From NCBI GenBank assembly GCA_018062065.1, contig JAGOSX010000001.1, positions 31,070 to 95,069 on the forward strand: DNA of 64,000 nucleotides. The letters run 5' to 3'. The translations under genes and the position numbers were made by a program. Source of the DNA: Minisyncoccota bacterium. GTDB lineage: Bacteria; Patescibacteriota; Minisyncoccia; Phycocordibacterales; UBA9973. Under the pieces are notes generated by a model. It made no database searches. It saw only the letters and a program-made list of their open reading frames with translations, and had not been told where the DNA came from. Shown piece after piece: positions 1,845 to 19,289 of the stretch; positions within the stretch are counted from its first letter, which is position 1; each line of letters starts with the position of its first letter.

Positions 1845-4313
1845 ATGAAAAAAATTTTTTCAAAAATTTTAATTGCTATCCTAATTTTAGGCTTTTTATT
1901 CGCACCAGTAACTCCAAAAATCGATATTCAAAATCATTTTAGTTTAGTAAAAAATGAAGTATTTGCGGAAGATATTTATTATTACATCATTCTAGCAGTT
2001 GATGGTATTAAATCGGTAGAAAAAACAACATTAAATTTATGCCAAGAAGCTAGAGACGAAAACTTAAAAAGTGGGACTTCTGTAAAAACTCCTTGTTTAA
2101 AAGCAACAAGTCGTGCAGAAATTGATGCCAAAATCGCTGAAATAAAAACAGAAACTACTCAACAAGAAATTACGGAGATTAACAAAACTTATGACGGCGT
2201 TCTTGGTGATAATTTTTTTAATTGTGAAGCTAGTACAATTTTTACAAATTGTTTAGTAGCAGGTCTTTACCATGTATTTTTTAGTTTATCAGCATTTTTA
2301 GCGAGTTTATCAGCAAGAATTTTAGATTACTTTGTATTTTATGCATTGGATAGTGATAGCTATAAAGGTGACTTTATTACACTAGGTTGGGCACTAGTTA
2401 GAGATATCTCTAATATACTTTTTATAATAGCTTTGCTTTATGTTGCAGGTAAAACAGTCTTAGGATTAAATACTTCTAATAATAAAAAGATAATAGGCAT
2501 GGTTATACTTATGGCGCTATTAATTAACTTTAGTTTATTTATAAGTAAAGTGGTGATTGATATTTCAAATATAGTAGCTAGAGTTTTTTATGCAAATATA
2601 GAAAACGTGGATCAGTCTGGTAATCAAAACGTAGCAGGTTATTCAGATGCAGATGGAACTACTGGTAAATCAATAAGTGTTGGACTTGTTGCACAATTTG
2701 ATCCTCAAAAGATTTTTCAAAATAGTGGAATTCCTCAATTAGTAGATGGCACAGTAGGTCCTTTTGCTATTGTTTTAATACTTTCTATTATTTTAATGTT
2801 TTATATGACTTATATGTTTTTATCTGTAGCTTTCGTTTTTATTGGTAGAGTTGCAATGCTTTGGATTTTAATGATTTTTTCTCCTTTAGCTTTTGTGTCA
2901 AATACGGTTCCTGATTTTAAAATACCTAAATTTAATTTTAGAGAATGGAAAAGCGAATTATTTAATCAATCGTTTTTAGCTCCTATATTTGTATTCTTTT
3001 TATACTTAATAATATCCTTTGGAAAATTACCGGTAGTTTCTGATGTTATAGATCCAAATACTTTAAATAATGTGGGAGGAACAGCAACAAATGGTACGTT
3101 AAACACATTTATGAAAATATTTATACCGTTCATTATAATCTTTACTTTAGTAAAAATTGCCAAAGATACAACTATAAAAATGGCAGGGGAGCTAGCATCA
3201 GGTATGAGTAAGTGGGGAACAATATTAGGTGCAGGAGCTTTAACCTTAGGAACCGCAGGGACTGCTTTTCTTGGCAGACAAGTAGCAGGAAGATCTGCGG
3301 CTGCATTAAGTAAAAGAGAAGGTGCAATGGAATATGGTACAGAAAGAGCTAAATATAGAGAGAATTTAGATGCATGGAAAGCTAGTGATAAAAAGACTAG
3401 AGGCGCTAGACCAACGTGGGAACAACACAAGACTGATTATACAGTTAAAACTGGTAATACACTCACAGACAGTTTCTTAACTAAAGTTGGAGGTAGGATT
3501 AATGCGGCACAAATTAGAAATAAGAAAATTGATCATGGTGCTCATGAATACGAAGATATTAAAAAGAAAGCTGGCTTAGAAGGAGTATCAGATTCAAATA
3601 TTAGCGCAGTAGAAGAAAGTAAGATGATTGAATTATTTATTAAAGATAAGAAAAATGATATTCAAAGTGAAATTAGAAGTGGTAATGCAAAAGATCATTC
3701 AGGTAATGCTATAGAAGGAGAAAATGAATTTAATATTAGAAACAGAAAATCTATTGCTGATAAAATAGGCGGAGCTCCAGGAAGTGCAGAAAGAGCGCAA
3801 GCTATTGCTGATGGTGATTTTGATAAAAAAACAAACAATCTAACAGATCAAGGAAGAAAGAAGGTTGATGAAACCCTAAAAATTGAATTTAACAAAGTGT
3901 TAGAAAAAACCACTAAAGAAGTTGGTAAAGAAAAATTTGAGCATTTTAGAACAGAAGCAAGATCAAAAACAAATATCATTGATAGAATAACTGCAAAATC
4001 TAGTTCTGGAAGTTATGATATGACTAAAATTAACTTTGAAGATAAACGAGCAAATATGATAAGTAAAGGAGTACTTGCAACCTTAGGAGTTATTGCATTA
4101 GGATTAAGAACTGGTTTAAAAAATATAAATTTAAATCCAGCAAAAGGCCAAGGTGACATAACAAAAGATTTAGCAAATATAATTAGTACTACTATAAAAG
4201 ATATTGGTAAAAACATAAAAATTGATGTTGGTGGCGGGCATGGTGGAGGTGGTGGACATGACAAAGGTGGACATGATGATCACGGTGGCGGGCATGGTGG
4301 AGGACATCATTAA
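1845..4313 (+). CDS. VirB6/TrbL-like polytopic membrane protein. It has a signal peptide, an N-terminal Cys-containing soluble region, a long K/E-rich C-terminal extension, and a terminal Gly/His-rich tail
   Basis: 822 aa. The N-terminal hydrophobic leader is MKKIFSKILIAILILGFLFA. At least six hydrophobic helices lie between about aa 130 and 440. The C-terminal ~350 aa is hydrophilic. The tail reads GGGHGGGGGHDKGGHDDHGGGHGGGHH. Its position at the head of a VirB4-containing locus supports the call. Confidence 0.45.
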   Translation: MKKIFSKILIAILILGFLFAPVTPKIDIQNHFSLVKNEVFAEDIYYYIILAVDGIKSVEKTTLNLCQEARDENLKSGTSVKTPCLKATSRAEIDAKIAEIKTETTQQEITEINKTYDGVLGDNFFNCEASTIFTNCLVAGLYHVFFSLSAFLASLSARILDYFVFYALDSDSYKGDFITLGWALVRDISNILFIIALLYVAGKTVLGLNTSNNKKIIGMVILMALLINFSLFISKVVIDISNIVARVFYANIENVDQSGNQNVAGYSDADGTTGKSISVGLVAQFDPQKIFQNSGIPQLVDGTVGPFAIVLILSIILMFYMTYMFLSVAFVFIGRVAMLWILMIFSPLAFVSNTVPDFKIPKFNFREWKSELFNQSFLAPIFVFFLYLIISFGKLPVVSDVIDPNTLNNVGGTATNGTLNTFMKIFIPFIIIFTLVKIAKDTTIKMAGELASGMSKWGTILGAGALTLGTAGTAFLGRQVAGRSAAALSKREGAMEYGTERAKYRENLDAWKASDKKTRGARPTWEQHKTDYTVKTGNTLTDSFLTKVGGRINAAQIRNKKIDHGAHEYEDIKKKAGLEGVSDSNISAVEESKMIELFIKDKKNDIQSEIRSGNAKDHSGNAIEGENEFNIRNRKSIADKIGGAPGSAERAQAIADGDFDKKTNNLTDQGRKKVDETLKIEFNKVLEKTTKEVGKEKFEHFRTEARSKTNIIDRITAKSSSGSYDMTKINFEDKRANMISKGVLATLGVIALGLRTGLKNINLNPAKGQGDITKDLANIISTTIKDIGKNIKIDVGGGHGGGGGHDKGGHDDHGGGHGGGHH

Positions 4314-4382: not shown

Positions 4383-5345
4383 ATGGATCAACAAGAATTA
4401 CAAAGAACAATAGCAAAATATTATCAAAAGCTTCCAGAAAAAGCAGGTGAGTATTTTGCTAGTATGAACTGGTTAGAAATTTTAAAAGGAATTAAAGAGA
4501 AAAATAATTTATCAGAATCTCAAATAGAAACTTTAAGTATAGAAACTACACTACTTTTACTTGCAGTAATTAATAAAGAAGAGTATGAAGCAATTTTAGA
4601 AAAAGATTTAGAATTAGAAAGAAATAAATTAGATTTAATTTTAAAAGAAATAGATGCTTATATCTTTAATAATATTGGATTAGAATTAAGAGAAACTTTT
4701 GAAAAGAATCAAGATGAATCAATAATAGGAAATGAAATAGAAGAAAATACTGAGGTTTTAAAAGATATTACTGAGTTAGCAAATAAAATAGAAGAGAAAC
4801 CAAAAATTTTATCTAATGAAAACGAAAGTAAGGTAGAGCTCATCGTAGGTGAATTAAATCATGAAGAGAAAGTATATCAAATAGGCAGGGAAAATAATCT
4901 CACTATTGCTCAAATCACCAAACTAGATGAAATCGTAAGTGACATTTTAAACGGAAAAATATTTGGTGATCAATTCCTTAATGCTTTAAATGCTTTAAAT
5001 TTAGACGAAGATAAAAAGAAAAATATTGCCAGTAGAATAAATAATGAAGTTTTCAAAGAAATCCGAAATCGCATGATGGGTAAAGTCTTAGAAAATAAAG
5101 GAGCTCAAGAACAAATAGTAAAAAAAGAAGAAATTGAACCTATGATACCAGTAATTAATAAAAACCCCGAAGAAATTGCATTAGAAAAAAAAATTATTGA
5201 AGATAAAAAAATAACAAGCAGTATAATAAATCAAAAACTCGGTAGTCAAGTCAAAAGTAACATAACAGACAGCGTACACTCATTACCAAACCTAAACGAA
5301 AATGCAAATAAAAAAATAGATCCTTATAGAGAAATTCCGGAATAA
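4383..5345 (+). CDS. Acidic, K/E-rich coiled-coil hypothetical protein (T4SS-locus associated)
   Basis: 320 aa with no TM segment. The composition is strongly E/K/I/L-biased with heptad-like periodicity. Confidence 0.4.
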   Translation: MDQQELQRTIAKYYQKLPEKAGEYFASMNWLEILKGIKEKNNLSESQIETLSIETTLLLLAVINKEEYEAILEKDLELERNKLDLILKEIDAYIFNNIGLELRETFEKNQDESIIGNEIEENTEVLKDITELANKIEEKPKILSNENESKVELIVGELNHEEKVYQIGRENNLTIAQITKLDEIVSDILNGKIFGDQFLNALNALNLDEDKKKNIASRINNEVFKEIRNRMMGKVLENKGAQEQIVKKEEIEPMIPVINKNPEEIALEKKIIEDKKITSSIINQKLGSQVKSNITDSVHSLPNLNENANKKIDPYREIPE

Positions 5346-5383: not shown

Positions 5384-5800
5384 ATGCAATTTAAAGTTCC
5401 ACAATTCTTAGACATAGAAGATAAAATATTTGGACCTTTTACTTTTAGCCAATTTGCTTATTTAGCAGGAGGCGCAGGTATTAGTTATTTTTTATATAAA
5501 ATTTTAGGATTTTGGTTAGGAATTATTCCCATTTTATTTATAATATCTTTAGCTTTGGCTTTAACTTTTTATAGACCCAACGATAAACCTTTTGTGGACA
5601 TGATAGAATCAGCTTTTAGTTATATGTTTAATAGCAAACTTTATATATGGCAAAGAGATAAAATAGAAAAGAAAGAAGTCTTTAAAAAAGAAAAAGAAGA
5701 GGAAGAAATTATTCATAATCCTAAATTAAACAAAAGTAAATTAAGAGATTTAGCATGGAGTTTAGATATATTAGATTTTAAAAAAGAAAAACAAGAATAA
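5384..5800 (+). CDS. Small 2-TM membrane protein, candidate VirB3/PrgI-like component
   Basis: 138 aa. Two hydrophobic helices (AYLAGGAGISYFLYKILGFWLGIIPILFIISLALAL) are followed by a charged tail. It sits immediately upstream of the VirB4 ORFs, as VirB3 does in minimal T4SSs. Confidence 0.35.
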   Translation: MQFKVPQFLDIEDKIFGPFTFSQFAYLAGGAGISYFLYKILGFWLGIIPILFIISLALALTFYRPNDKPFVDMIESAFSYMFNSKLYIWQRDKIEKKEVFKKEKEEEEIIHNPKLNKSKLRDLAWSLDILDFKKEKQE

Positions 5801-5803
5801 TTT

Positions 5804-6454
5804 ATGGCAATTAATGCAAGACCAACTCAAGAATTCGTCCCAATTAAAGAAATTAGAGACGGTGTAATAGAACTAAAAGACGGCGGGCTACGCGCTATCG
5901 TTTTGGCGAATTCTATTAACTTATCTTTAAAATCAGGAGAAGAACAAAAAGCTATAATTTTACAATTTCAAAATTTTTTAAATACCTTAGATTTTTCAGT
6001 TCAAGTATGTATTGAATCAAGAAGATTAGATATTAGACCATATCTATTATTACTCGAAAATCGAATGAAAATTCAAAATGAACCACTAATGAAACTTCAA
6101 ACCAAAGAATATATGGAATTTATTCGTAATTTTACAGAAAGCGTAAATATTATGACCAAAAGCTTTTTTATTGTTGTACCTTATAGTGAAAATACATTTA
6201 TACCTTCAAATAATAATGTTTTAGATAATTTATTTAAAAAGAAGAGTAATGAAGAAAAAAAATTAGCAGAAAAAATGGATTTTGAGGAAAAAAGATCTCA
6301 ACTTGAGCAAAGAGTAAGTATTATTCAACAAGGATTAAACCGTTGTGGTATCAAATCTGCTCAATTAGGGACAGAAGAAGCGGTTGAGGTGTTTTATAAA
6401 GTCTTTAATCCAGGAGAACTAGAAGGAAAGATAGAACTTGAAGGTCAAAACTAA
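5804..6454 (+). CDS. VirB4/TraC-family ATPase, N-terminal domain fragment (gene split into two ORFs)
   Basis: 216 aa. QEFVPIKEIRDGVIELKDGGLRAIVLANSINLSLKSGEEQKAIILQFQNFLNTLDFSVQVCIESRRLDI matches the characteristic N-terminus of Gram-positive VirB4 proteins (Tn916 Orf16, TcpF and PrgJ type). It terminates at TAA 6452-6454. Confidence 0.55.
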   Translation: MAINARPTQEFVPIKEIRDGVIELKDGGLRAIVLANSINLSLKSGEEQKAIILQFQNFLNTLDFSVQVCIESRRLDIRPYLLLLENRMKIQNEPLMKLQTKEYMEFIRNFTESVNIMTKSFFIVVPYSENTFIPSNNNVLDNLFKKKSNEEKKLAEKMDFEEKRSQLEQRVSIIQQGLNRCGIKSAQLGTEEAVEVFYKVFNPGELEGKIELEGQN

Positions 6455-6519: not shown

Positions 6520-8364
6520 ATGGGAATTTTTGATACATTATTTGGTAAAAAAGAAAATAAAAACAAAACAGAAGTTGATACTTCTATGCTTTCGGTATTA
6601 CCTGAGCAAATTTATGAATCTGCAACATTAGAACTCAAAGATATAATTGCTCCTTCAGCCTTAAAAATAGAAAGTAAATCTATAAGTTTAGGCGACAAAA
6701 TAGCTAGAACTTTTTTTATAATATCTTATCCTAGATATTTAATTGATAACTGGTTTTCTCCTATCATAAATTTAGATAAAATATTTGATGTATCAATTTT
6801 TATACATCCAATAGACACTTCAATAATATTAAGACAATTCCAAAAAAAGGTAGCCGAAGTTCAAAGTCAAATCAATGATCGTGAAGCACGAGGTATGGTA
6901 CGTGACCCAATGCTAGATACAGCTTATCAAGACTTAGAAGGACTTAGAGATAGCCTAATCCAAGCCCAAGAAAAGATGTTTGACGTGGGGGTTTATATCA
7001 CAGTCTATGCTGATAATGAACTTGAATTATATAAAACAGAAAATGAAATCAAATCTGTACTTGAATCTAAATTAATTTATCTTAAACCAGCTCTTTTTCA
7101 GCAAGAAGACGGTTTTAAAAGTGTTATTCCAATAGGTACAGATTTATTATCTATAAATCAAAAATTAAACTCTGAACCTCTATCGTCTATTTTTCCTTTT
7201 GTTTCTTTTGATTTAACTTCTGACAAAGGAATACTTTATGGTATTAATCGTCACAATTCTAGTTTGGTAATTTTTGATAGATTTTCACTTGAAAACTACA
7301 ACTCAGTAACTTTTGCTAAATCTGGAAGTGGAAAAAGCTATGCAACAAAATTAGAGATTCTCAGATCTTTAATGTTTGATATAGATGTAATAGTTATAGA
7401 CCCAGAGAGGGAATACGAATATTTATCTGAAGCTGTAGGTGGTAGGTACTTTAATATTTCTCTTTCTTCTGATCACCATATAAATCCTTTTGATTTACCT
7501 ATACCTCGTGACGATGAAACTCCAGCTGATGTGCTAAGATCTAACATTATTAATTTGGTTGGTCTTTTTAGATTAATGCTAGGAGGACTTAGCCCAGAAG
7601 AAGATGCATTAGTAGATAGAGCAATATCTGAAACTTATGCTATTAAAGATATTACTCCTGAATCTGATTTTTCTAACATTGAACCGCCTCTACTTTCTGA
7701 TTTTGAGATGGTTCTTTCTGGTATGGAAGGCTCTGAATCAGTAGTCCAAAGATTAGCAAAATACACAAAGGGCTCTTGGTCTACTTTTATCAATAGACCT
7801 TCAAACGTAGATATCAACAAAAAATTCGTGGTTTTTTCAGTTCGCGACATGGAAGACGAATTAAAACCTATAGCTATGTATATAGTTACTCATTTTATAT
7901 GGAATACTATACGCAAAACTTTAAAGAAAAGACTTCTTGTAGTGGACGAGGCTTGGTGGATGATGAAATCTGAAGACACCGCTTCTTTCTTATATTCCTT
8001 AGCTAAAAGGGGAAGAAAATATTACCTGGGACTAGCAACTATCACTCAAGACGCTGCTGACTTTATGAAGTCTCCATATGGAGTGCCTATTATTACCAAC
8101 TCTTCAATTCAATTATTGCTAAAGCAAAGTCCTAGTACCATAGATATATTGCAAAAAACCTTTAACCTTACTGATGAAGAAAAATATCTATTACTGGAAT
8201 CTGGGGTAGGAGAAGGCATCTTCTTTGCTGGATTAAAGCACGTTGCTATTAAAGTTGTAGCGTCTTATACTGAAGATCAAATTATCACCTCAGACCCATC
8301 TCAAATACTATCTATTAAAAAGGAAAGAGAAGACCTTGAAAATGTAGAAATGAATAATAGTTAA
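6520..8364 (+). CDS. VirB4/TraC-family conjugation/T4SS ATPase, C-terminal part containing the ATPase domain
   Basis: 614 aa. Walker A is GSGKSYATK. Walker B/DExx-like motifs are VIVIDPEREY and LLVVDEAWWM. LGDKIARTFFIISYPRYLIDNWFSPI is a typical VirB4 middle region. The two ORFs together total 830 aa, matching a full-length VirB4. Confidence 0.75.
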   Translation: MGIFDTLFGKKENKNKTEVDTSMLSVLPEQIYESATLELKDIIAPSALKIESKSISLGDKIARTFFIISYPRYLIDNWFSPIINLDKIFDVSIFIHPIDTSIILRQFQKKVAEVQSQINDREARGMVRDPMLDTAYQDLEGLRDSLIQAQEKMFDVGVYITVYADNELELYKTENEIKSVLESKLIYLKPALFQQEDGFKSVIPIGTDLLSINQKLNSEPLSSIFPFVSFDLTSDKGILYGINRHNSSLVIFDRFSLENYNSVTFAKSGSGKSYATKLEILRSLMFDIDVIVIDPEREYEYLSEAVGGRYFNISLSSDHHINPFDLPIPRDDETPADVLRSNIINLVGLFRLMLGGLSPEEDALVDRAISETYAIKDITPESDFSNIEPPLLSDFEMVLSGMEGSESVVQRLAKYTKGSWSTFINRPSNVDINKKFVVFSVRDMEDELKPIAMYIVTHFIWNTIRKTLKKRLLVVDEAWWMMKSEDTASFLYSLAKRGRKYYLGLATITQDAADFMKSPYGVPIITNSSIQLLLKQSPSTIDILQKTFNLTDEEKYLLLESGVGEGIFFAGLKHVAIKVVASYTEDQIITSDPSQILSIKKEREDLENVEMNNS

Positions 8365-8380
8365 TGTTATAATTAACTCA

Positions 8381-9358
8381 ATGATAAAAAAGGTTTTTAT
8401 TATAATAATTGCTTTTCTATTCTTAACGAATAGTAATTTCGCTTTTGCTCAACTTTCTAGTGGAGATATAACTTTAATCACAAACCCTTCTTACCCAAAA
8501 GCAGGTGAAACTGTAACCGCAAAAATTGAAAGTTATACTGTAGATTTAAATAAATCTTATATAATCTGGAAATTAAACGATGAAACTAGGCTAAACGGTA
8601 TAGGCAAAAATGAATTTAACTTTACTCTAGGAGAGACAAGTTCTAAAAATGATATTTCTGTTACCATAGAAACCTTAGACGGTAAAACTTTCACTAAAAA
8701 CCTCAGTTTATCAGGTGCGGACTTAGATTTGCTTTGGGAAGCGATAAATTCATACGCACCTCCTTTTTATAAAGGGAAAATTTTATTTAGCAGAGAAGGA
8801 GAAATTAAAGTAACTGCAATACCTAATATTCATAACGGTCAAAATAAAATTAGTCCGAACACTCTATCTTATGCTTGGGAGAAGGATGGAAATAGGGATT
8901 TAAAAGCATCAGGTTTTGGAAAAACTTATTTTAATTATAAAAATAGTTTTTTGGATAAATCAAACGAAATACAAGTAACAGTTTCAGATATTAATAGTAA
9001 CACCGAATTAAATCAAAGTATTAGAATCACCCCCACAGAACCTAAAATTATTTTATATAAAAAAGAAGGGGATGAAATAAAAACTAATAACAGTATTAAA
9101 AATAACTATTTTATTAGAAAAGAAGGTGAAAATATTGTTGCATTACCTTATTTCTTTTCTCCTAAAAATTTATTTTTGAGTGACTTAAAAATAAATTGGT
9201 TTGTAAACGGTGAACAAATTTTAAATCCAATAGCTAAGAACGAATTATTTATAAAACCAGCGGAAGGCAAAAACGGGGAGGCAAATCTTCGGGTTATTAT
9301 TGAAAATTTAACAACCCTTTTCCAAACCAAAGATAAAAACTTAATTTTTAATTTTTAA
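8381..9358 (+). CDS. Secreted beta-rich hypothetical protein of the T4SS-like locus
   Basis: 325 aa. The signal peptide is MIKKVFIIIIAFLFLTNSNFAFAQ. The composition is N/K/T-rich and no catalytic motif was recognised. Confidence 0.4.
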   Translation: MIKKVFIIIIAFLFLTNSNFAFAQLSSGDITLITNPSYPKAGETVTAKIESYTVDLNKSYIIWKLNDETRLNGIGKNEFNFTLGETSSKNDISVTIETLDGKTFTKNLSLSGADLDLLWEAINSYAPPFYKGKILFSREGEIKVTAIPNIHNGQNKISPNTLSYAWEKDGNRDLKASGFGKTYFNYKNSFLDKSNEIQVTVSDINSNTELNQSIRITPTEPKIILYKKEGDEIKTNNSIKNNYFIRKEGENIVALPYFFSPKNLFLSDLKINWFVNGEQILNPIAKNELFIKPAEGKNGEANLRVIIENLTTLFQTKDKNLIFNF

Positions 9359-10362
9359 TGAAAAAAATATTTTTTAAAAAAATAATTATATATTTATTTT
9401 TAACAATAACATTATTAGGTGTTTTAAGTCCTAATAATATTGTTTTTGCTCAACTTGATTTTACTGTTACCGACCAAGGAGATCCTAATGGAGACGGTAA
9501 CCCGGGAACAACAACCACGAACGCAACAATAGTAGAACCAGTACCAATTTATAACGAGAAAGAATACGAACCATTAGCTCCATTACCAGGATTAGAAGGT
9601 CCTTTAGATTTTAGCGGAGATTGTGTTTTAGGAGAATATTTAAATATTTTCATAAAAGTCTTCTTATCAATAATCACTGCTATTGCAGTAATTATGATAG
9701 TCTACGGGGGTATTAATTATCTTATGAGCGATTTAGCAAACACTAAAGAAGATGCAAAATCTTCTATCATTAACGCAATTTTAGGAATAATTATTGCTTT
9801 ATCTGCTTATATTATATTAAACACAATAAACCCCAAGCTACTTAATCTTTGTTTAAACAATATTCCAAATCAATCGATATCTGTTAGTGAATTTGACGAA
9901 CCTCAAAAATTAATAAATGGAAAATATGGAAAATATACAGCTAATGCAAAATGGGATGAAAACCTTGCTGGTGATTTTGCTAAATTACCAAGGGGTGTTA
10001 CAGTAAATTCAAAAGAATGTACTTATGTTGGTGAACGTAGTTGTACATCCACAAGAGGTTTAAATACATCTATTGTAAACAATTTGGCAAATTCATGCTG
10101 GGAAAGTAACGGTAAAAAAGATTGTAATATTATCATCACAGGAGGAACAGAAAACTGGTTACATAGTGCAAATGGGGGTCATGAACCAGGTAGTCCAGTA
10201 ATAGATGTAAGAGCCAGTACCGATGTTAATTTTTATATAACGGGTAAAGCTACTCCTCCTACAAAAGATATAACTATTACAAAAAATGGTGTAAAATATA
10301 GTTATGAGGTCGCTCATTCAAACGAAAATACAACAGGCGCACATTGGCACGTTCATTATTAA
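9358..10362 (+). CDS. VirB2/TrbC-like pilin domain (signal peptide plus two-helix hairpin) fused to a C-terminal Cys-containing domain carrying LAS/M15-type zinc-peptidase-like motifs
   Basis: 334 aa with a signal peptide. Hydrophobic helix IFIKVFLSIITAIAVIMIVYGGINYL, then loop MSDLANTKEDAKSS, then helix IINAILGIIIALSAYIILNTI give the TrbC/VirB2 topology. The C-terminal ~170 aa has six Cys, GGHEPGSPVID (H-x7-D) and a terminal HWHVHY (H-x-H). These resemble the Zn ligands of LAS/hedgehog-type D,D-peptidases (M15). Confidence 0.4.
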   Translation: MKKIFFKKIIIYLFLTITLLGVLSPNNIVFAQLDFTVTDQGDPNGDGNPGTTTTNATIVEPVPIYNEKEYEPLAPLPGLEGPLDFSGDCVLGEYLNIFIKVFLSIITAIAVIMIVYGGINYLMSDLANTKEDAKSSIINAILGIIIALSAYIILNTINPKLLNLCLNNIPNQSISVSEFDEPQKLINGKYGKYTANAKWDENLAGDFAKLPRGVTVNSKECTYVGERSCTSTRGLNTSIVNNLANSCWESNGKKDCNIIITGGTENWLHSANGGHEPGSPVIDVRASTDVNFYITGKATPPTKDITITKNGVKYSYEVAHSNENTTGAHWHVHY

Positions 10363-10367
10363 ACCAA

Positions 10368-11690
10368 ATGTCTAAAAAATTTATCATTTTAATAACAATC
10401 TTAATTCTAATTATAGTTTTGTTTTTTGGCTTTTCTTATTTAACAAAAGATAATACTAATACAAATCAAAATACCGAAAATAGTAATAAAAACTTTTTTT
10501 CCGATATTTTTAATTTCGGAAATATAACTCAAAATGAAACTGTAAACAACATAGTTGATTTTGTTACAGGCAACAATGAAGAAAAAGAAGGAGATATAGA
10601 AGAAGTTAAAAAACTTTATAAAATATCTAGCATGCCTATTACTGGTTATGGTATTTTAGAAAAAGAAGTTTACATTGAGGTTCCAGATTTACTTCCAGAA
10701 GAAGTCGATTTTAATGAAGGCAATCAAAATCAAACTGAAGCCCCTAAGACTGAATTTATTTCAGTTATTCGTTACGCGGACAAGCGTAACGGAAATATTT
10801 ACGAAAACCAAATTAACAAAACAGAAGAAAGAAAGTATTCAAATACAGAAATATTCAAAGTACACGAATCTTTATTTACAAATAGAAACACAATCATGCG
10901 TTATCTAAAAAATAACGATACTATCGTAACCTTCTTAGGGGAAATATCTAAAGACGTAATAGGAGGTGACTCAGAAAATGCTCATGAAATCTTTGGCTCT
11001 TTTTTACCAGACGGCATAAAAGATATTTCAGTATCTAAAGAAAAAAACGAATTCTTTTATTTAACAAATAGTAGAGATGGGGTAATAGGTAATTTAATAA
11101 ATGAAAAAGGGGAAAAGATTCAAGTTTTTAATTCTTCTTTCTCAGAATGGAATTCTCATTTCCCTAATAAAGATTATGTTATTTTGAATACAAGACCTTC
11201 AGGATTAGTAGATGGTTTTAGTTATATTTTAAACCTTAAAAATAAAGATTTTAATAAAATACTAGGCAACATAAAAGGCTTAACAACTCTAAGTAATAAT
11301 ACTTTATCTACTATATTATATTCAGATAATAATCTATCAATAAAATTATTTGATCTTAGTAGAGAAGAAACTAGAAATCTAAGATTAAGAACTCATCCTG
11401 AAAAATGTGTATGGAGCAATGATAACGTAATCTTGTATTGTGCTATACCAAAAGAAATCGAAGCTGATTTAATTTACCCTGATGCTTGGTATCAAGGTGA
11501 GGTGAGTTATAACGACGAGATTTGGAAAATAGATACTTACACTGGAGCAAAAACAAAATTAATCGATCCAAATACTTTATATGAGAATGAAAATATAGAT
11601 GCTATTAATTTATCTTTAGATAAAGACGAAAAAACTTTATTCTTTATGAATAAAGTTGATTCATATCTTTGGGCTCTTCGTTTAGATTAA
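10368..11690 (+). CDS. N-terminally membrane-anchored hypothetical protein (last gene of the T4SS-like locus)
   Basis: The ATG at 10368 (MSKKFIILITILILIIVLFF...) gives a start directly followed by a TM helix. The TTG at 10344 in the ORF track overlaps the upstream gene by 19 nt and is less likely. Total ~440 aa. Confidence 0.4.
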   Translation: MSKKFIILITILILIIVLFFGFSYLTKDNTNTNQNTENSNKNFFSDIFNFGNITQNETVNNIVDFVTGNNEEKEGDIEEVKKLYKISSMPITGYGILEKEVYIEVPDLLPEEVDFNEGNQNQTEAPKTEFISVIRYADKRNGNIYENQINKTEERKYSNTEIFKVHESLFTNRNTIMRYLKNNDTIVTFLGEISKDVIGGDSENAHEIFGSFLPDGIKDISVSKEKNEFFYLTNSRDGVIGNLINEKGEKIQVFNSSFSEWNSHFPNKDYVILNTRPSGLVDGFSYILNLKNKDFNKILGNIKGLTTLSNNTLSTILYSDNNLSIKLFDLSREETRNLRLRTHPEKCVWSNDNVILYCAIPKEIEADLIYPDAWYQGEVSYNDEIWKIDTYTGAKTKLIDPNTLYENENIDAINLSLDKDEKTLFFMNKVDSYLWALRLD

Positions 11691-12978: not shown

Positions 12979-13185
12979 TTATTTTAAAACATCAATATGA
13001 TTTTTTTGCCAAGGGTGACAACGCAAAACTCTAACCATAGAAAGGTAAAAACCCTTAAAAAACCCATATTTTATAAAGGCTTGTTTGCTATATTCCGAAC
13101 AAGAAGGATAAAAAACACAACTTGGTTTTTTATATATTCGAATATATTTTTGATAAAAATTTATTAAAAAAAGAGCAATTTTCAT
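12979..13185 (-). CDS. yidD: Membrane protein insertion efficiency factor YidD
   Basis: 68 aa. FYPSCSEYSKQA...GFFKGFYLSMVRVLRCHPW matches the YidD signature (C-x-FYPSCSEY ... RCHP). Confidence 0.8.
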   Translation of the reverse strand: MKIALFLINFYQKYIRIYKKPSCVFYPSCSEYSKQAFIKYGFFKGFYLSMVRVLRCHPWQKNHIDVLK

Positions 13186-13553
13186 TAACTTTGTTTTAAA
13201 ATAGAAATAATTTGTTTAATTTCATTTTCAAGGTTTAAAAAAGCTGTATTTTTATGATTTCCTCGCAAAGCAAATATTTCTTTACTATTTTTACCAAAAA
13301 TAAAAGATCCATTAAGGCCTAAAGGCAAATCATGTAAATATTTAGAAACAACATTATAACCCCTACGTCTTAACATATTCCGCCCAACAGCACTTTTCAT
13401 TACATTTTTAGGCACAATAAAAGAAACCCGTGTTTCAAGGTTTCCTTTATTAATATAGAATTTAAGGCTAATATTATTGGAATTTATAAATTTCCCTTGT
13501 TTAAAAATTAAATCTACAATCTTTTGACTAGTTCTATTTTTCTTGGGAATCAT
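13185..13553 (-). CDS. rnpA: Ribonuclease P protein component
   Basis: 122 aa and basic, located between rpmH and yidD. The ISLKFYI...RVSFIVPKN pattern is typical of RnpA. Confidence 0.75.
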   Translation of the reverse strand: MIPKKNRTSQKIVDLIFKQGKFINSNNISLKFYINKGNLETRVSFIVPKNVMKSAVGRNMLRRRGYNVVSKYLHDLPLGLNGSFIFGKNSKEIFALRGNHKNTAFLNLENEIKQIISILKQS

Positions 13554-15400: not shown

Positions 15401-16498
15401 ATGAAGGTAGAATGTGAAATCGACAAAATCAAAAATGGAATTCTCTTAGCAGAAAAGATTACTGGTAAGAATTTAACATTACCAGTTTTAAGTTCTATTT
15501 TATTAGAAGCAACAAATAAGAGTTTAAAATTAAAAGCAATGAATTTAAGTTTAGGTATTGAAATAGAAATACCTGCTAAAATTTCAGAAGAAGGAATTTT
15601 GGCAATTTCTGGTAATTCTTTAGCTTCAGTTTTTTCTAATATTATTCAAAAAGAAAATATAATTCTAGAAGGAGAAGAAGGAAATCTTTTAATTAAAACC
15701 AAAAAGAATAAAATTAAACTAAAAGGAATGCCTTATGAAGATTTTCCTACTATACCAGTTGTTGCGGGAGACAGTTTTGAAATTGAATCTAAAAAAATAA
15801 TAGAAGGTATAAAATCTGTTTACTATAGTGCTTCGGTTTCCGATATTAAACCAGAAATTTCTAGTGTTTATGTTTATTCCAAAGAGAGTGATTTGGTTTT
15901 TGTTTCAACAGACTCTTTTCGTTTAGCTGAAAAGAAAATTAAACTTAAAAAGAGTATTGAGAATTTTAATGTATTAATCCCTTTTAAGAATATAGCCGAA
16001 ATAATGAGAGTTATTGGAGAAAATAATCAAAATATAAATATTTGTTTTAATAAAAATCAAATATCTTTTTCTTTAGATAATATTTATTTAACTTCTCGTA
16101 TTATTGATGGAATTTATCCTGACTATAGGCAAATTATTCCAAAAGAGAGTAAGACTGAAGTTGTCCTCCTTAAACAAGATTTATTAAATGCTTTAAAAAT
16201 TTCTAATATTTTTTCTGATAAATTTAATCAATTAAACCTATCTATTAATACCAAAGATAAGATTTTTGAATTTTCTTCGTCAAATAATGATGTTGGTGAA
16301 AATAAAACTTATTTGGATGCAGTATTAAAAGGGGAGGATATTAATTTGTCTTTTAATTATAAGTATTTTTTGGATGCTTTCGCTTCTTTGTCTACCGATA
16401 GTGTTTCTATTAAATTAGATGGCCCTCAAAAACCTATGGTTATTAATTCTGTTTCTGATAATTCTTTCACTTATTTAATAATGCCAATGAATAGATAA
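15401..16498 (+). CDS. dnaN: DNA polymerase III beta sliding clamp
   Basis: 365 aa with a three-domain beta-clamp pattern, located immediately after dnaA. Confidence 0.9.
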   Translation: MKVECEIDKIKNGILLAEKITGKNLTLPVLSSILLEATNKSLKLKAMNLSLGIEIEIPAKISEEGILAISGNSLASVFSNIIQKENIILEGEEGNLLIKTKKNKIKLKGMPYEDFPTIPVVAGDSFEIESKKIIEGIKSVYYSASVSDIKPEISSVYVYSKESDLVFVSTDSFRLAEKKIKLKKSIENFNVLIPFKNIAEIMRVIGENNQNINICFNKNQISFSLDNIYLTSRIIDGIYPDYRQIIPKESKTEVVLLKQDLLNALKISNIFSDKFNQLNLSINTKDKIFEFSSSNNDVGENKTYLDAVLKGEDINLSFNYKYFLDAFASLSTDSVSIKLDGPQKPMVINSVSDNSFTYLIMPMNR

Positions 16499-16500
16499 TT

Positions 16501-16758
16501 ATGATAGAGATAAAAGATCTCTTACTAAGATTTAATAAATTAATCGACAATGAAGAAATTAAGATTTCTTTGATTAGAGAAAGTATTTTAGAGGTTTTAA
16601 AAATTGATATTCCTAAAAATAAAATTTTTTTTAAAAATGGTATTCTTAAACTTGATATTAATTCTATTTATAAAAATGAAATATTTTTAAATTGGGAAAA
16701 AATATCTAAAAAGATAGGAGAAAAAAGTAATGTTAAAAACATCAGAAAAGTATTTTAA
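16501..16758 (+). CDS. Small hypothetical protein downstream of dnaN (possibly DUF721/DciA-like, weak)
   Basis: 85 aa. The position after dnaN and a C-terminal pattern GILKLDINSIYKNEIFLNWEKI loosely resemble DUF721 proteins. No strong motif was found. Confidence 0.25.
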   Translation: MIEIKDLLLRFNKLIDNEEIKISLIRESILEVLKIDIPKNKIFFKNGILKLDINSIYKNEIFLNWEKISKKIGEKSNVKNIRKVF

Positions 16759-19289
16759 AGTCCAACTCTAAAATTAGCAATTACTTCTTTAGAATTATAA
16801 ACACTATCATATATATTTAACCTAAGTTCGTTTTCATCCTTAAGGTTTTCTAAGCTTTCAGGTGTGAAACTGTAATTAAAAGGAGGCTCTAAGGTTCCAA
16901 CAAAAGAACCATTAATAAAAACATCCATTTTAATTATAGGATACAAACTATTTGTTTCTGTTTTAATACTTATGATTTCATTACTACTGTATAGTTTATC
17001 GTTTCTAGGCTCTATAATGCTCACTGTGGGTTTGTAATTGCCGTGTATGTTGTCATACTCATTTGGTATTTCATTTATTGAGGTTTGGTCATATTTTTGA
17101 TAATTTTTAGCCCACCAGTCTTGGATAGGAGTATTCCAATTTATAAACACTCTAGAATTTTCTATGTTGCTTGGTTTTGGCCCTAAAATATTATTTCTAT
17201 CAACCCAATACAAGATTGATTTTACGTTAGTTATAGTTTTTTCTACTTTTGTTTGTTCTGGAGTAAATTCTGTTGCTAGCTTTCCTGTTACTGAATCAAT
17301 AATATAACTCTCATTTCCCCACCAAATACCTCTTAGTATTGGTTTTATATTTTTGTCGTAAGGGATAGGTTCTTCAAAGGTTTCGCTAGAAACTAAAGGT
17401 AATGCATGTCTCATAAATCCGTTCCAAATAGGTCCAGCTAAAGCCGAACCTCCTTTTTTCATAGGTTTATTGTCATTATTTCCAGCCCATACTCCTACTA
17501 CTAAAGATGGAGTATACCCAACAGTCCACGCGTCTTTGTTGTTATTTGTAGTACCTGTTTTAACTGCAACTTTATATCCAGGAACTTCTAAAGCTGAACC
17601 AACTCCGAAAGTAGGCACTCTCGCCACATTGTCAGACATAATAGAAGAAATCGTTAATGCTGTGTTTTTAGGCAAGACACTTATTTCTTTTTGATTATAT
17701 TTTTCTAAACTTTCCCCGTCTTTATCAAATACTTCTAAAATTCCGGTTTGCTTGTTTTTAATTCCACTATTTGCAAATACTCCATACGCAGAAGTTATAT
17801 CAAGCAAACTTACCTCACCACCCCCAATAACTAAAGTTAATCCGTAGCGATTAATATCTCCTAGAGAACTTATGCCCATATCTTCAGCTGTTTTTAGTGA
17901 GTCTCTAAGTCCTGAAAGGTAAAACAACTTAATAGCTGGAATGTTTATTGATTGAGCTAGAGCATTTCTTAAGCTTATTGGTCCTCTAAAATTTCCGTCG
18001 TAGTTTTGAGGACTGTAACAATTACTTTGACTACCAGTTATTGCTCTACCGTAAGCGTCACAAGTTGTTTGAAATTCTGTTGGTAAATCAAAAAGCACAG
18101 TATCAGCAGTAAATCCTTTATTAAAAGCCGTAGCGTAAATAAAAGGTTTAAAAGAAGAACCTGGTTGTCTTAATGCTGTAGCTACATTAAAGTTTCCATC
18201 TATATCTTTATCAAAATAATCTCTTGACCCCACCATAGAAAGTATTTGTCCTGTTTTCGGATCTATCGCTACTAACGCAGCGTTTTTACCATTCCACGCT
18301 TTTTCGTTCTTTAAAGCCTCAGTTTTAACTATCTCTTCAGCTTTCTCTTGCATCTTCCAGTCCAAAGTAGTTATAACTTTTAAGCCTCCCTTTTCAACTA
18401 CATCTTTACCATATTTTTCTTCCAAATACTCTTTAATATAAAATACAAAATGCGGAGCTTTGATATTGCTTATATTTTGCTTTTGAAATTCTACTACTTC
18501 TAGTTTTGCTGTTTCGTATTCTTCTTTGGTTATAAAATTAGCATTATACATTTGGTATAAAACTAAATTTTTTCTTTCCTCTAGCTTGTCTAAATTTTTT
18601 CCAAAAGGAGAAAGCTTAGTAGGGGATTGAGGTATTGCTGCTAAATACGCAGCTTCGGCAACAGTTAGATCTATAGCTTTCTTGTTGAAATAAGTCTTAG
18701 CAGCTTCTTCTACTCCGTAAACAGTTCCCCCATAAGGAACTTCATTTAAATAAAGTTCAAAGATTTCGTCTTTAGTTAAAGCATTTTCGATTTTGACTGC
18801 TAAAATCCATTCTTTTACTTTACGAATAATACTTCTTTTTGAAGTTAGCAAAGTGTTTTTTATTAATTGTTGAGTGATAGTTGAACCTCCTCCTCCAATA
18901 CCGATATTAAATACATTTGAAAAAACAGCACGCACAGTAGAACTAACTCTAACCCCAGAGTGATTATAAAATTCTCTATCTTCAATAGCTAAAGTGGCAT
19001 TTTTAATATTAGTTCCCATTTCTTCAAAAGAGATATTGGTTCTTTTGATGTCTTGGTGAACATTATAAAGCAAAACTTCTCCAGTTCGATCGTAAATTTT
19101 AGTTGAGTTTATAATTAATCTTTCTTCAAAATCATTAAAATCAGGAATTTTTAAAGTAGCTATCCAAAATATAACTACTGAAATACAAATAAGACCAAAA
19201 CCAACTAGGAATAAAAAGGCTTCGTGCCAAAAGCTTTGTTTTTTATGTTTACGAACTAAATTTTTTATTTTTTTTAACCACTTTTTCAT
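16755..19289 (-). CDS. Class A penicillin-binding protein (PBP1A-type: glycosyltransferase GT51 + transpeptidase) with a C-terminal extension
   Basis: 844 aa. The GT51 motifs are EDREFYNHSGV and GGSTITQQL. The transpeptidase motifs are SSFKPF (SxxK), SxN and KTGTT. An N-terminal TM anchor is present. Confidence 0.9.
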   Translation of the reverse strand: MKKWLKKIKNLVRKHKKQSFWHEAFLFLVGFGLICISVVIFWIATLKIPDFNDFEERLIINSTKIYDRTGEVLLYNVHQDIKRTNISFEEMGTNIKNATLAIEDREFYNHSGVRVSSTVRAVFSNVFNIGIGGGGSTITQQLIKNTLLTSKRSIIRKVKEWILAVKIENALTKDEIFELYLNEVPYGGTVYGVEEAAKTYFNKKAIDLTVAEAAYLAAIPQSPTKLSPFGKNLDKLEERKNLVLYQMYNANFITKEEYETAKLEVVEFQKQNISNIKAPHFVFYIKEYLEEKYGKDVVEKGGLKVITTLDWKMQEKAEEIVKTEALKNEKAWNGKNAALVAIDPKTGQILSMVGSRDYFDKDIDGNFNVATALRQPGSSFKPFIYATAFNKGFTADTVLFDLPTEFQTTCDAYGRAITGSQSNCYSPQNYDGNFRGPISLRNALAQSINIPAIKLFYLSGLRDSLKTAEDMGISSLGDINRYGLTLVIGGGEVSLLDITSAYGVFANSGIKNKQTGILEVFDKDGESLEKYNQKEISVLPKNTALTISSIMSDNVARVPTFGVGSALEVPGYKVAVKTGTTNNNKDAWTVGYTPSLVVGVWAGNNDNKPMKKGGSALAGPIWNGFMRHALPLVSSETFEEPIPYDKNIKPILRGIWWGNESYIIDSVTGKLATEFTPEQTKVEKTITNVKSILYWVDRNNILGPKPSNIENSRVFINWNTPIQDWWAKNYQKYDQTSINEIPNEYDNIHGNYKPTVSIIEPRNDKLYSSNEIISIKTETNSLYPIIKMDVFINGSFVGTLEPPFNYSFTPESLENLKDENELRLNIYDSVYNSKEVIANFRVGL

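Follow-up and report, generated by a model that had tools for sequence, protein, structure and literature searches.

A VirB2-type pilin hairpin fused to a putative LAS-type peptidase domain in the type IV secretion locus of Patescibacteria

Introduction

Patescibacteria make up a large share of bacterial diversity. The bacterium studied here is an ultrasmall and probably host-dependent member of this group. The chromosomal type IV secretion system (T4SS) of Patescibacteria proved indispensable in the only species examined so far. In a 2025 survey most of the genomes that had VirB2-like pilins lacked a VirB1 wall hydrolase; other hydrolases may take over, and how the apparatus crosses the wall was left open (PMC12102498). 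The pilins described there belong to Pfam family PF18895 and are encoded beside virB4 and virB3 in an origin-proximal locus. They are small and often come as arrays of 2-11 divergent copies, as in Saccharibacteria. Here we analyse a stretch of 64,000 nucleotides (the window) from a Minisyncoccota bacterium (assembly GCA_018062065.1, contig JAGOSX010000001.1, positions 31,070 to 95,069). One gene in this window, at 9358..10362 on the forward strand, encodes a pilin of the same family, in the same phylum and in the same kind of locus. In contrast to the described pilins, it is present in a single copy and carries a C-terminal, enzyme-like domain of about 155 amino acids (aa).

Membrane-anchored VirB1-like hydrolases are already known from monoderm T4SSs. 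PrgK of pCF10, TraG of pIP501 and TcpG (cited in PMC12102498) are encoded in monoderm-type T4SS operons, have a membrane anchor and a catalytic part outside the membrane, and presumably open the wall locally for the secretion apparatus. All of this would also apply to the pilin fusion. The known proteins, however, combine SLT, CHAP, NlpC/P60 or LytM (M23) domains with a plain N-terminal transmembrane anchor, whereas the domain described here has a predicted LAS/Hedgehog-like fold and is anchored by a pilin hairpin. No homology between them was detected.

The LAS peptidases form the second known group to which the protein can be compared. MepA (M74), VanX/VanY/VanXY/LdcB, the Streptomyces albus DD-peptidase (M15) and phage L-Ala-D-Glu endolysins share an H...D...H triad plus an H-x-H motif, and the zinc motif is defined as H-x(3-6)-D ... 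H (PMC4087270). Zinc in Sonic hedgehog (Shh) and bacterial M15A enzymes is coordinated by H141, D148 and H183; E177 serves as general base, and the stacking histidines H135 and H181 stabilise the transition state (PMC6027127, PMC8052667). The triad, the H-x-H motif and the cell-envelope setting recur in our protein.

Thus the T4SS locus near dnaA, the VirB2-like pilins of Patescibacteria, the LAS peptidases and the anchored hydrolases are all known. New is a LAS subfamily with H-x7-D spacing in a new architecture, outside the coverage of Pfam and NCBIfam. The literature we searched mentions neither a pilin that ends in an enzyme domain nor this domain itself, and the 2025 survey does not mention an extra domain on its pilins (0 text matches for 'C-terminal domain' in PMC12102498). 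The reading we favour, and consider moderately probable, is that the only VirB2-like subunit of a monoderm-type T4SS carries an outward-facing, zinc-dependent LAS peptidase that acts on peptidoglycan peptides and stands in for VirB1.

Architecture of the fusion protein

The open reading frame (ORF) starts with ATG and encodes 334 aa plus a stop codon, as given in the ORF list. The identical protein is called on 4 public contigs. All parts of the gene described below lie on the forward strand.

The protein starts with a Sec-type signal peptide (aa 1-31, 9358..9450), MKKIFFKKIIIYLFLTITLLGVLSPNNIVFA|Q. Read from the sequence, it begins with MKKIFFKK, which supplies the KK..KK n-region, continues with a hydrophobic core and ends in VFA|Q, where cleavage would take place. 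An N-terminal hydrophobic segment is found in nearly all full-length homologues. The signal peptide is followed by a variable, presumably extracytoplasmic segment (aa 32-91, 9451..9630) with a PLAPLPG motif and Cys89. Among homologues this segment ranges from ~30 to ~430 aa.

The pilin hairpin (aa 98-157, 9649..9828) is of the VirB2/TrbC type. Its two hydrophobic transmembrane helices, TM1 and TM2, lie at about aa 92-121 and 135-157 and are joined by the loop SDLANTKEDAK. Residues 98-157 match Pfam PF18895 (T4SS_pilin) with E=7.4e-8 and 32.8 bits, above the curated cut-off of 26.6 bits. The match to PF04956 (TrbC) is weak (13.7 bits), and so is the best NCBIfam match on the hairpin, the pilin-like conjugal-transfer model NF045849, which stays below its cut-off. 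The hairpin also matches T4SS_pilin/TrbC in the homologues we examined in Pfam, and a hydropathy scan recovered the layout of signal peptide and short-looped helix pair in the window protein and in almost all of 150 homologues. A first-pass annotation of the window had proposed just this, an N-terminal signal peptide and a two-helix hydrophobic hairpin of a VirB2/TrbC-like pilin; the Pfam match confirms the pilin assignment. Pilins of this kind are small, with about 70-150 aa in the mature form and no further domain. At 334 aa, with a folded domain of ~155 aa, the protein departs from this pattern.

A linker (aa 158-178, 9829..9891) leads from TM2 to the folded domain. It contains Cys165 and the motif NPKLL, which is near-invariant in the family alignment as NP.LL. 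The C-terminal domain (9892..10359), putatively of LAS (Hedgehog/DD-peptidase) type, contains four invariant Cys (221, 229, 247 and 256). The first-pass annotation had counted six Cys in the C-terminal ~170 aa. Six is the number for the whole protein (89, 165, 221, 229, 247 and 256); five of them fall in the last ~170 aa and four in the folded domain.

By analogy with VirB2-type pilins, TM1 would cross the membrane inwards and TM2 outwards, and the C-terminal domain would lie outside the membrane. We infer the outside location from the signal peptide, the even count of transmembrane helices and the invariance of the Cys pairs. The four invariant Cys of the domain would fit two disulfides.

The two remaining Cys, Cys89 and Cys165 (codons 9622-9624 and 9850-9852), co-occur. 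A Cys just after TM2 is found in 41 proteins, and 41/41 also have a Cys just before TM1. Among the other 181 proteins, which have no Cys after TM2, a Cys precedes TM1 in 36/181 (counts uncorrected for phylogeny). The sequence pattern suggests that C89 and C165 may form a disulfide that clamps the hairpin together at its outer ends.

Predicted fold of the C-terminal domain

The domain has no relevant match in Pfam, NCBIfam or the PDB when searched with the single sequence, a 3-sequence profile or a 63-sequence profile. Scanned singly in Pfam at E<=10, 63 members gave no match on the C-terminal domain and no M15 model, and neither Pfam nor NCBIfam detected SLT, CHAP or NlpC/P60 homology in the fusion protein. 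Aligning the family profile with hhalign to human Shh-N, to a 12-sequence Hedgehog/bacterial-Hedgehog profile and to Escherichia coli MepK (M15A) gave E values of 0.08-0.34, which are not significant. (The 12-sequence alignment was taken from optical character recognition text of the PMC6027127 supplement.) The local alignment with Shh-N (E=0.34, not significant) pairs H269, H275 and D283 with H135, H141 and D148 in mouse numbering. These Shh residues lie in GHHSEES (its second His), SLHYEG (His) and AVD (Asp). H275 and D283 fell on the H...D of the template only in the single-sequence Shh run and in a relaxed MepK run, both non-significant.

The resemblance to LAS proteins emerges from the predicted structure. 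With the 63-sequence alignment, AlphaFold returned a model with a predicted local distance difference test score (pLDDT) of 92.4 and a predicted template modelling score of 0.81; with only 3 sequences the model was poor (pLDDT 56). In the good model pLDDT is 65-79 over the first 30 residues, in keeping with a linker, and >95 afterwards. The best structural neighbours of the modelled domain are Hedgehog signalling domains, and the model adopts the Hedgehog/DD-peptidase fold of the LAS superfamily. Foldseek searches against the PDB and viral structures gave non-significant matches only, with Shh at the top in the PDB (E=0.21).

The order of predicted elements follows that of the Hedgehog N-domain. 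A helix (aa 238-251) is followed by the strand IIITG (258-262), a loop with H269 and H275, a strand with D283 (model residues 133-136), a second helix, a hairpin that ends in E317, and a last strand with H329-W-H331. Hedgehog and the bacterial Hedgehog-like M15A proteins likewise have a helix and a strand (..T-x-G..), followed by a two-His loop and an Asp strand; after another helix come a strand with Glu at its end and the final H-x-H strand (PMC6027127, PMC8052667). In Shh the strand KLRVTEG precedes the H135/H141 loop, parallel to IIITG here. The Hedgehog N-domain is also extracytoplasmic and membrane-tethered. The differences are the lack of significant sequence or profile similarity, an H-x7-D here as opposed to H-x6-D in Hedgehog, two extra putative disulfides, and a tether that is a VirB2-type hairpin rather than lipids or unrelated transmembrane segments.

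The first-pass annotation had made structural similarity to LAS, M15 or M23 folds decisive for its proposal. The Hedgehog-type neighbours agree with the LAS part; an M23 match was not found. We rejected membership in the M23/lysostaphin group, as there is no fold match and the spacing is wrong (M23 has H-x3-D plus H-x-H). A His-Me/HNH nuclease was also considered and rejected for want of a credible fold match. With the domain as tblastn query, no match was obtained among 50,697 phage and 72,556 plasmid records, and therefore the domain is not a known endolysin or plasmid conjugation module.

The proposed active site

Conservation was counted in 241 aligned homologues of roughly 25-60% identity. 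H269 (241/241), H275 and D283 (each 240/240) and H329 and H331 (each 238/238) are invariant, so the His and Asp residues to which the first-pass annotation had pointed are indeed conserved in orthologues. W267 is found in 240/241 members, E265 in 237/241 and E317 in 224/238 (94%). The Cys residues are similarly constant: C221 and C229 occur in 241/241, C247 in 240/241 and C256 in 237/241. Motifs as short as these might occur by chance on their own; it is their conservation across 241 homologues that lifts them above it.

Within the TGGTE-x-W-x-H motif (aa 261-269, 10138..10164), which includes the near-invariant E265, H269 is the proposed equivalent of Shh H135. H275 and D283 (10180..10206) are the proposed first and second zinc ligands, equivalent to H141 and D148. 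E317 (10306..10308), at the end of a beta-strand, is the proposed general base (Shh E177). The H329-W-H331 motif on the last strand (10342..10350) corresponds to the LAS H-x-H near the C-terminus (Shh H181 and H183). GGHEPGSPVID and the terminal HWHVHY, the two motifs singled out at first pass, are present in the ORF and contain H275-x7-D283 and H329-x-H331, respectively.

The six residues H269, H275, D283, E317, H329 and H331 are collinear with H135, H141, D148, E177, H181 and H183 of Shh. Spacings, counted on the validated Shh sequence, are similar: 8 here versus 9 in Shh from T to H, 6 versus 6 from H to H, and 8 versus 7 from H to D. From E to H the distance is 3 in the common form of the family and 4 in Shh. 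Most members, 140 in number, show this common form, E-x2-HxH; in the window protein an insert of 11 residues separates E317 from H329. H and D are spaced by x7 in 236/239 members, and H-x-H has an aromatic residue in the middle (W in 198, Y in 30, F in 6). Order, spacing and predicted secondary structure suggest that H269 and E317 are equivalent to their Shh counterparts, and would supply the stacking His and the catalytic Glu that characterise the Hedgehog/M15A subgroup.

Could the resemblance be coincidental? The domain would then have a novel fold, rich in Cys and His, and an unrelated function, such as that of a structural module that binds metal. Six catalytic-type residues that are collinear with Shh, and on equivalent secondary-structure elements, make this very improbable. 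The LAS/M15-like arrangement of ligands proposed at first pass thus holds for the residues, which are invariant and collinear with Shh. It does not hold for the spacing, which is H-x7-D and not the H-x6-D of M15, and we found no sequence or profile link to M15 or Hedgehog. From the LAS peptidoglycan metallopeptidases the domain also differs in its x7 spacing and in matching no M15 Pfam model in any of the 63 members. As we looked for sequence homology and detected none, we do not assign the domain to the M15 or Hedgehog family. It very probably works like a member of these families.

A second alternative accepts the fold and denies the catalysis. The domain could hold a structural zinc and serve as an adhesin or ligand-binding module, similar to the pseudo-active site of Shh, with the pilin hairpin displaying it on the surface. 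The best structural neighbours are signalling domains, E177 is dispensable for Shh signalling (PMC8052667), and no sequence link to the enzymatically proven M15 families was found. Yet 94-100% of the 241 members retain the Glu proposed as general base and the two non-ligand histidines, which would be difficult to account for if there were no catalysis. Drosophila Hedgehog, described as being without the Hedgehog/DD-peptidase motif, has lost exactly these residues (PMC6027127). Since the non-ligand catalytic residues are so strongly conserved, a purely binding role is disfavoured, and we consider it improbable.

The fusion is the standard form of a large family

A word-indexed search retrieved only two relatives of the protein. 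Exhaustive searching with a hidden Markov model (HMM) profile of three sequences yielded 612 clusters (50% identity) at E<=1e-3, of which 266 reach E<=1e-10. In the best 150 of the 612 clusters the domain is almost always C-terminal and directly follows two hydrophobic helices, and the N-terminus resembles a signal peptide. The few proteins that deviate appear to be fragmentary. In public databases the homologues are named 'hypothetical protein', 'pilin' or 'VirB2 component'.

Scanning one genome per GTDB species yielded 79 loci, all of Patescibacteria type and for the most part labelled as Paceibacteria/Parcubacteria lineages. Their titles include Paceibacterota, Nomurabacteria, Yonathbacteria, Kaiserbacteria, Zambryskibacteria, Parcubacteria and similar names. 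At 75/79 loci the hairpin and the domain are encoded in one ORF. In 77/79 loci there is no additional, unfused pilin-like ORF within 8 kb on either side, and the rest are two split ORFs. No second pilin-like ORF was found in the whole 64-kb window. Hence the fusion is apparently the normal and only VirB2-like component of this T4SS in a large clade of Patescibacteria, and no local accident. The first-pass annotation had regarded the combination of pilin and hydrolase as unusual. The fusion does exist; it is no one-off, being the standard form in a large Patescibacteria family.

Across the 79 species the gene order is almost without exception orf822, orf320, PrgI, TrsD-like, VirB4, sec325, fusion gene, orf448, jag, yidC, dnaA. 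In the window the PrgI, TrsD-like and VirB4 genes lie 1-4 kb upstream of the fusion gene, as expected for a pilin in a T4SS locus with virB4 and virB3. The locus is the origin-proximal, monoderm-type (MPF-FATA-like) T4SS described for Patescibacteria (PMC12102498).

A proposed pilin-anchored wall peptidase

Neither Pfam nor NCBIfam detected an SLT, CHAP, NlpC/P60 or M23 domain in the proteins of the operon. Synteny places the fusion gene in the T4SS operon, and its putative catalytic part would be outside the membrane, as in VirB1-like hydrolases. We propose that the protein is exported by Sec and, after removal of the signal peptide, sits in the membrane as a two-helix hairpin with both ends outside. 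The linker of ~20 residues would hold the disulfide-stabilised domain of ~155 aa on the outer face. There, H275, D283 and H331 would bind zinc, E317 would act as general base, and H269 and H329 would be the transition-state histidines. The domain would most likely cut a peptide bond in the stem peptides or cross-links of peptidoglycan. Because the enzyme is part of the pilin, cutting of the wall would be confined to the site of T4SS assembly. In this way the pilin-borne enzyme could replace the separate VirB1-type hydrolase that was not found in the operon, in line with the observation that most Patescibacteria with VirB2 lack VirB1 and with the suggestion that other hydrolases take over (PMC12102498).

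The fold and the active-site residues support this interpretation. Zinc binding and catalysis would be expected from them, and a VirB1-like muralytic role, the substrate and the choice between the bacterium's own wall and that of a host are further steps of the proposal. Several points weigh against it. The H275-x7-D283 spacing is one residue outside the published H-x(3-6)-D range (PMC4087270). There is no significant profile-profile or HMM link to Hedgehog, MepK/M15A or any Pfam family. The six residues are presumed to cluster around one metal site. A VirB2-type pilus may have difficulty accommodating a 19-kDa domain on every subunit, and the hairpin may be only an anchor. Finally, Hedgehog itself shows that a protein with a complete LAS site can have a main function other than peptidase activity.

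If the peptidase is active, it may instead act in cis, as a maturation enzyme. It would then cleave near the linker or otherwise process the pilin, analogous to TrbC-type trimming, and leave a small mature pilin and a free enzyme. C-terminal trimming is generally known to be common in VirB2/TrbC pilins, and a flexible linker of ~20 aa with the conserved NP.LL separates the two parts. A self-directed ('cannibalistic') peptidase activity has been reported for Shh-N (PMC6027127). However, LAS enzymes of known substrate act on peptidoglycan peptides and not on pilins, and beyond NP.LL we found no conserved motif that looks like a cleavage site. The idea is purely speculative, and we think it highly unlikely.

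The main rival to a pilin-anchored peptidase that opens the producer's own wall is a pilus directed at the host. A VirB2-type filament with surface peptidases would digest the wall or surface layer of a host or partner cell at the point of contact, and serve attachment, penetration or feeding. The fusion is the only pilin-like gene of the operon, and in F and T pili the termini of VirB2-type pilins are known to be extracytoplasmic and on the outside of the pilus. The variable N-terminal inserts and C-terminal tails suggest surface exposure. Saccharibacteria depend on their T4SS genes and pilin arrays for epibiotic growth, and Patescibacteria T4SSs have been proposed to make pili (PMC12857230; PMC12102498). 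Parasites of methanogens that are related to Paceibacteria express T4SS pilins at high levels (PMC10936435). Against this stands the conservation of site and domain across lineages with probably very different hosts, including murein-free archaea. Such strong conservation is better explained by a constant substrate such as the own wall. The steric fit of a 155-aa domain on each subunit may be a further difficulty, and no pilus has been seen for this clade. We therefore see a host-directed pilus as a serious but rather unlikely explanation. In its strongest form, every T4SS filament subunit in Paceibacteria would carry an active Hedgehog/LAS-type zinc peptidase that digests the host envelope at the contact point, which we also doubt.

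A candidate hydrolase that is built into the pilin of a large Paceibacteria clade would be a concrete answer, with a defined active site, to the question of how the apparatus crosses the wall. It raises the question whether these 'pilins' polymerise at all. It also places a surface-tethered Hedgehog-like fold in a lineage that lives by cell-to-cell contact. If filament subunits were indeed active peptidases, this would be the first catalytic conjugative-type pilus, and prokaryotes would provide a precedent for a Hedgehog-like domain that acts between cells while tethered to a membrane or filament.

Neighbouring genes

The operon lies on the forward strand of a window with ~30% G+C. It is headed by an 822-aa protein (1845-4313; syntenic in 35/79 loci) and a 320-aa protein (4383-5345; 13/79 loci), neither of which has a Pfam or NCBIfam match. 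By position they could be VirB6-like channel or surface components. A PrgI/VirB3-like protein follows (5384..5800; Pfam PF12666, E=1.9e-7; 47/79 loci). VirB4 is split over two genes, both syntenic in about 50/79 loci. The first (5804..6454) encodes a TrsD/VirB4 N-terminal-like protein of 216 aa, with matches to NCBIfam NF045975, NF045971 and NF041427 and, in an orthologue, to PF26593 (TraC-like). The second (6520..8364) encodes a VirB4-like ATPase of 614 aa, of the CD1110 family (monoderm type), which scores 370.6 bits with NF045971 (cut-off 325 bits) and matches P-loop_TraG in Pfam.

Two conserved genes flank the fusion gene directly, and their products, both envelope proteins, have no Pfam or NCBIfam match. 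Upstream is a secreted 325-aa protein with a signal peptide (8381..9358, +; syntenic in 57/79 loci). Its stop codon overlaps the start of the fusion gene (TAATG), which is consistent with translational coupling. Downstream is a 439-aa protein with an N-terminal membrane anchor (10371..11690, +; 70/79 loci). The mechanical ORF list starts this gene at TTG 10344; the orthologue points to ATG 10371.

Beyond the operon come jag, yidC, a 122-aa ORF on the minus strand (13185-13553), dnaA and a 365-aa ORF (15401-16498). The syntenic counterpart of the 122-aa ORF in the orthologous contig carries a Ribonuclease_P Pfam domain, and the 365-aa ORF has the size and position of the gene for the DNA polymerase III beta subunit in the orthologue. 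The neighbourhood is thus the replication origin region. Further on, an 844-aa ORF on the minus strand (16755-19289) fits the size and position of a Transgly/Transpeptidase gene, of the class A penicillin-binding protein type, on the syntenic contig. If it is such a gene, then murein is made by the organism itself. Scanning the window with Rfam returned five tRNAs only.

Variants and labels among the homologues

The closest orthologue (L001 4967-5849, DALYEI010000004.1), with 62% identity in the domain, is annotated as 219 aa without the N-terminus. This annotation is truncated because a run of N inside the gene breaks the ORF, and several other 'short' family members are probably similar artefacts or fragments at contig ends.

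Some homologues are longer. In P0010, P0028, P0091, P0108, P0006, P0026 and P0064 the add-on is either a tail of ~100 aa after H-x-H or up to ~430 aa between the signal peptide and TM1. The inserts between signal peptide and TM1 in homologues show weak fn3 or DUF1410 matches. Their form suggests that tails and inserts are surface-exposed, variable add-ons.

The same gene is carried by metagenome-assembled genomes titled 'uncultured Candidatus Saccharibacteria' or 'uncultured Bdellovibrionales' (L006, L007, L013, L051, L075 and others). Those titled Saccharibacteria also share the operon order of the Paceibacteria genomes, and the automated Saccharibacteria and Bdellovibrionales labels look doubtful.

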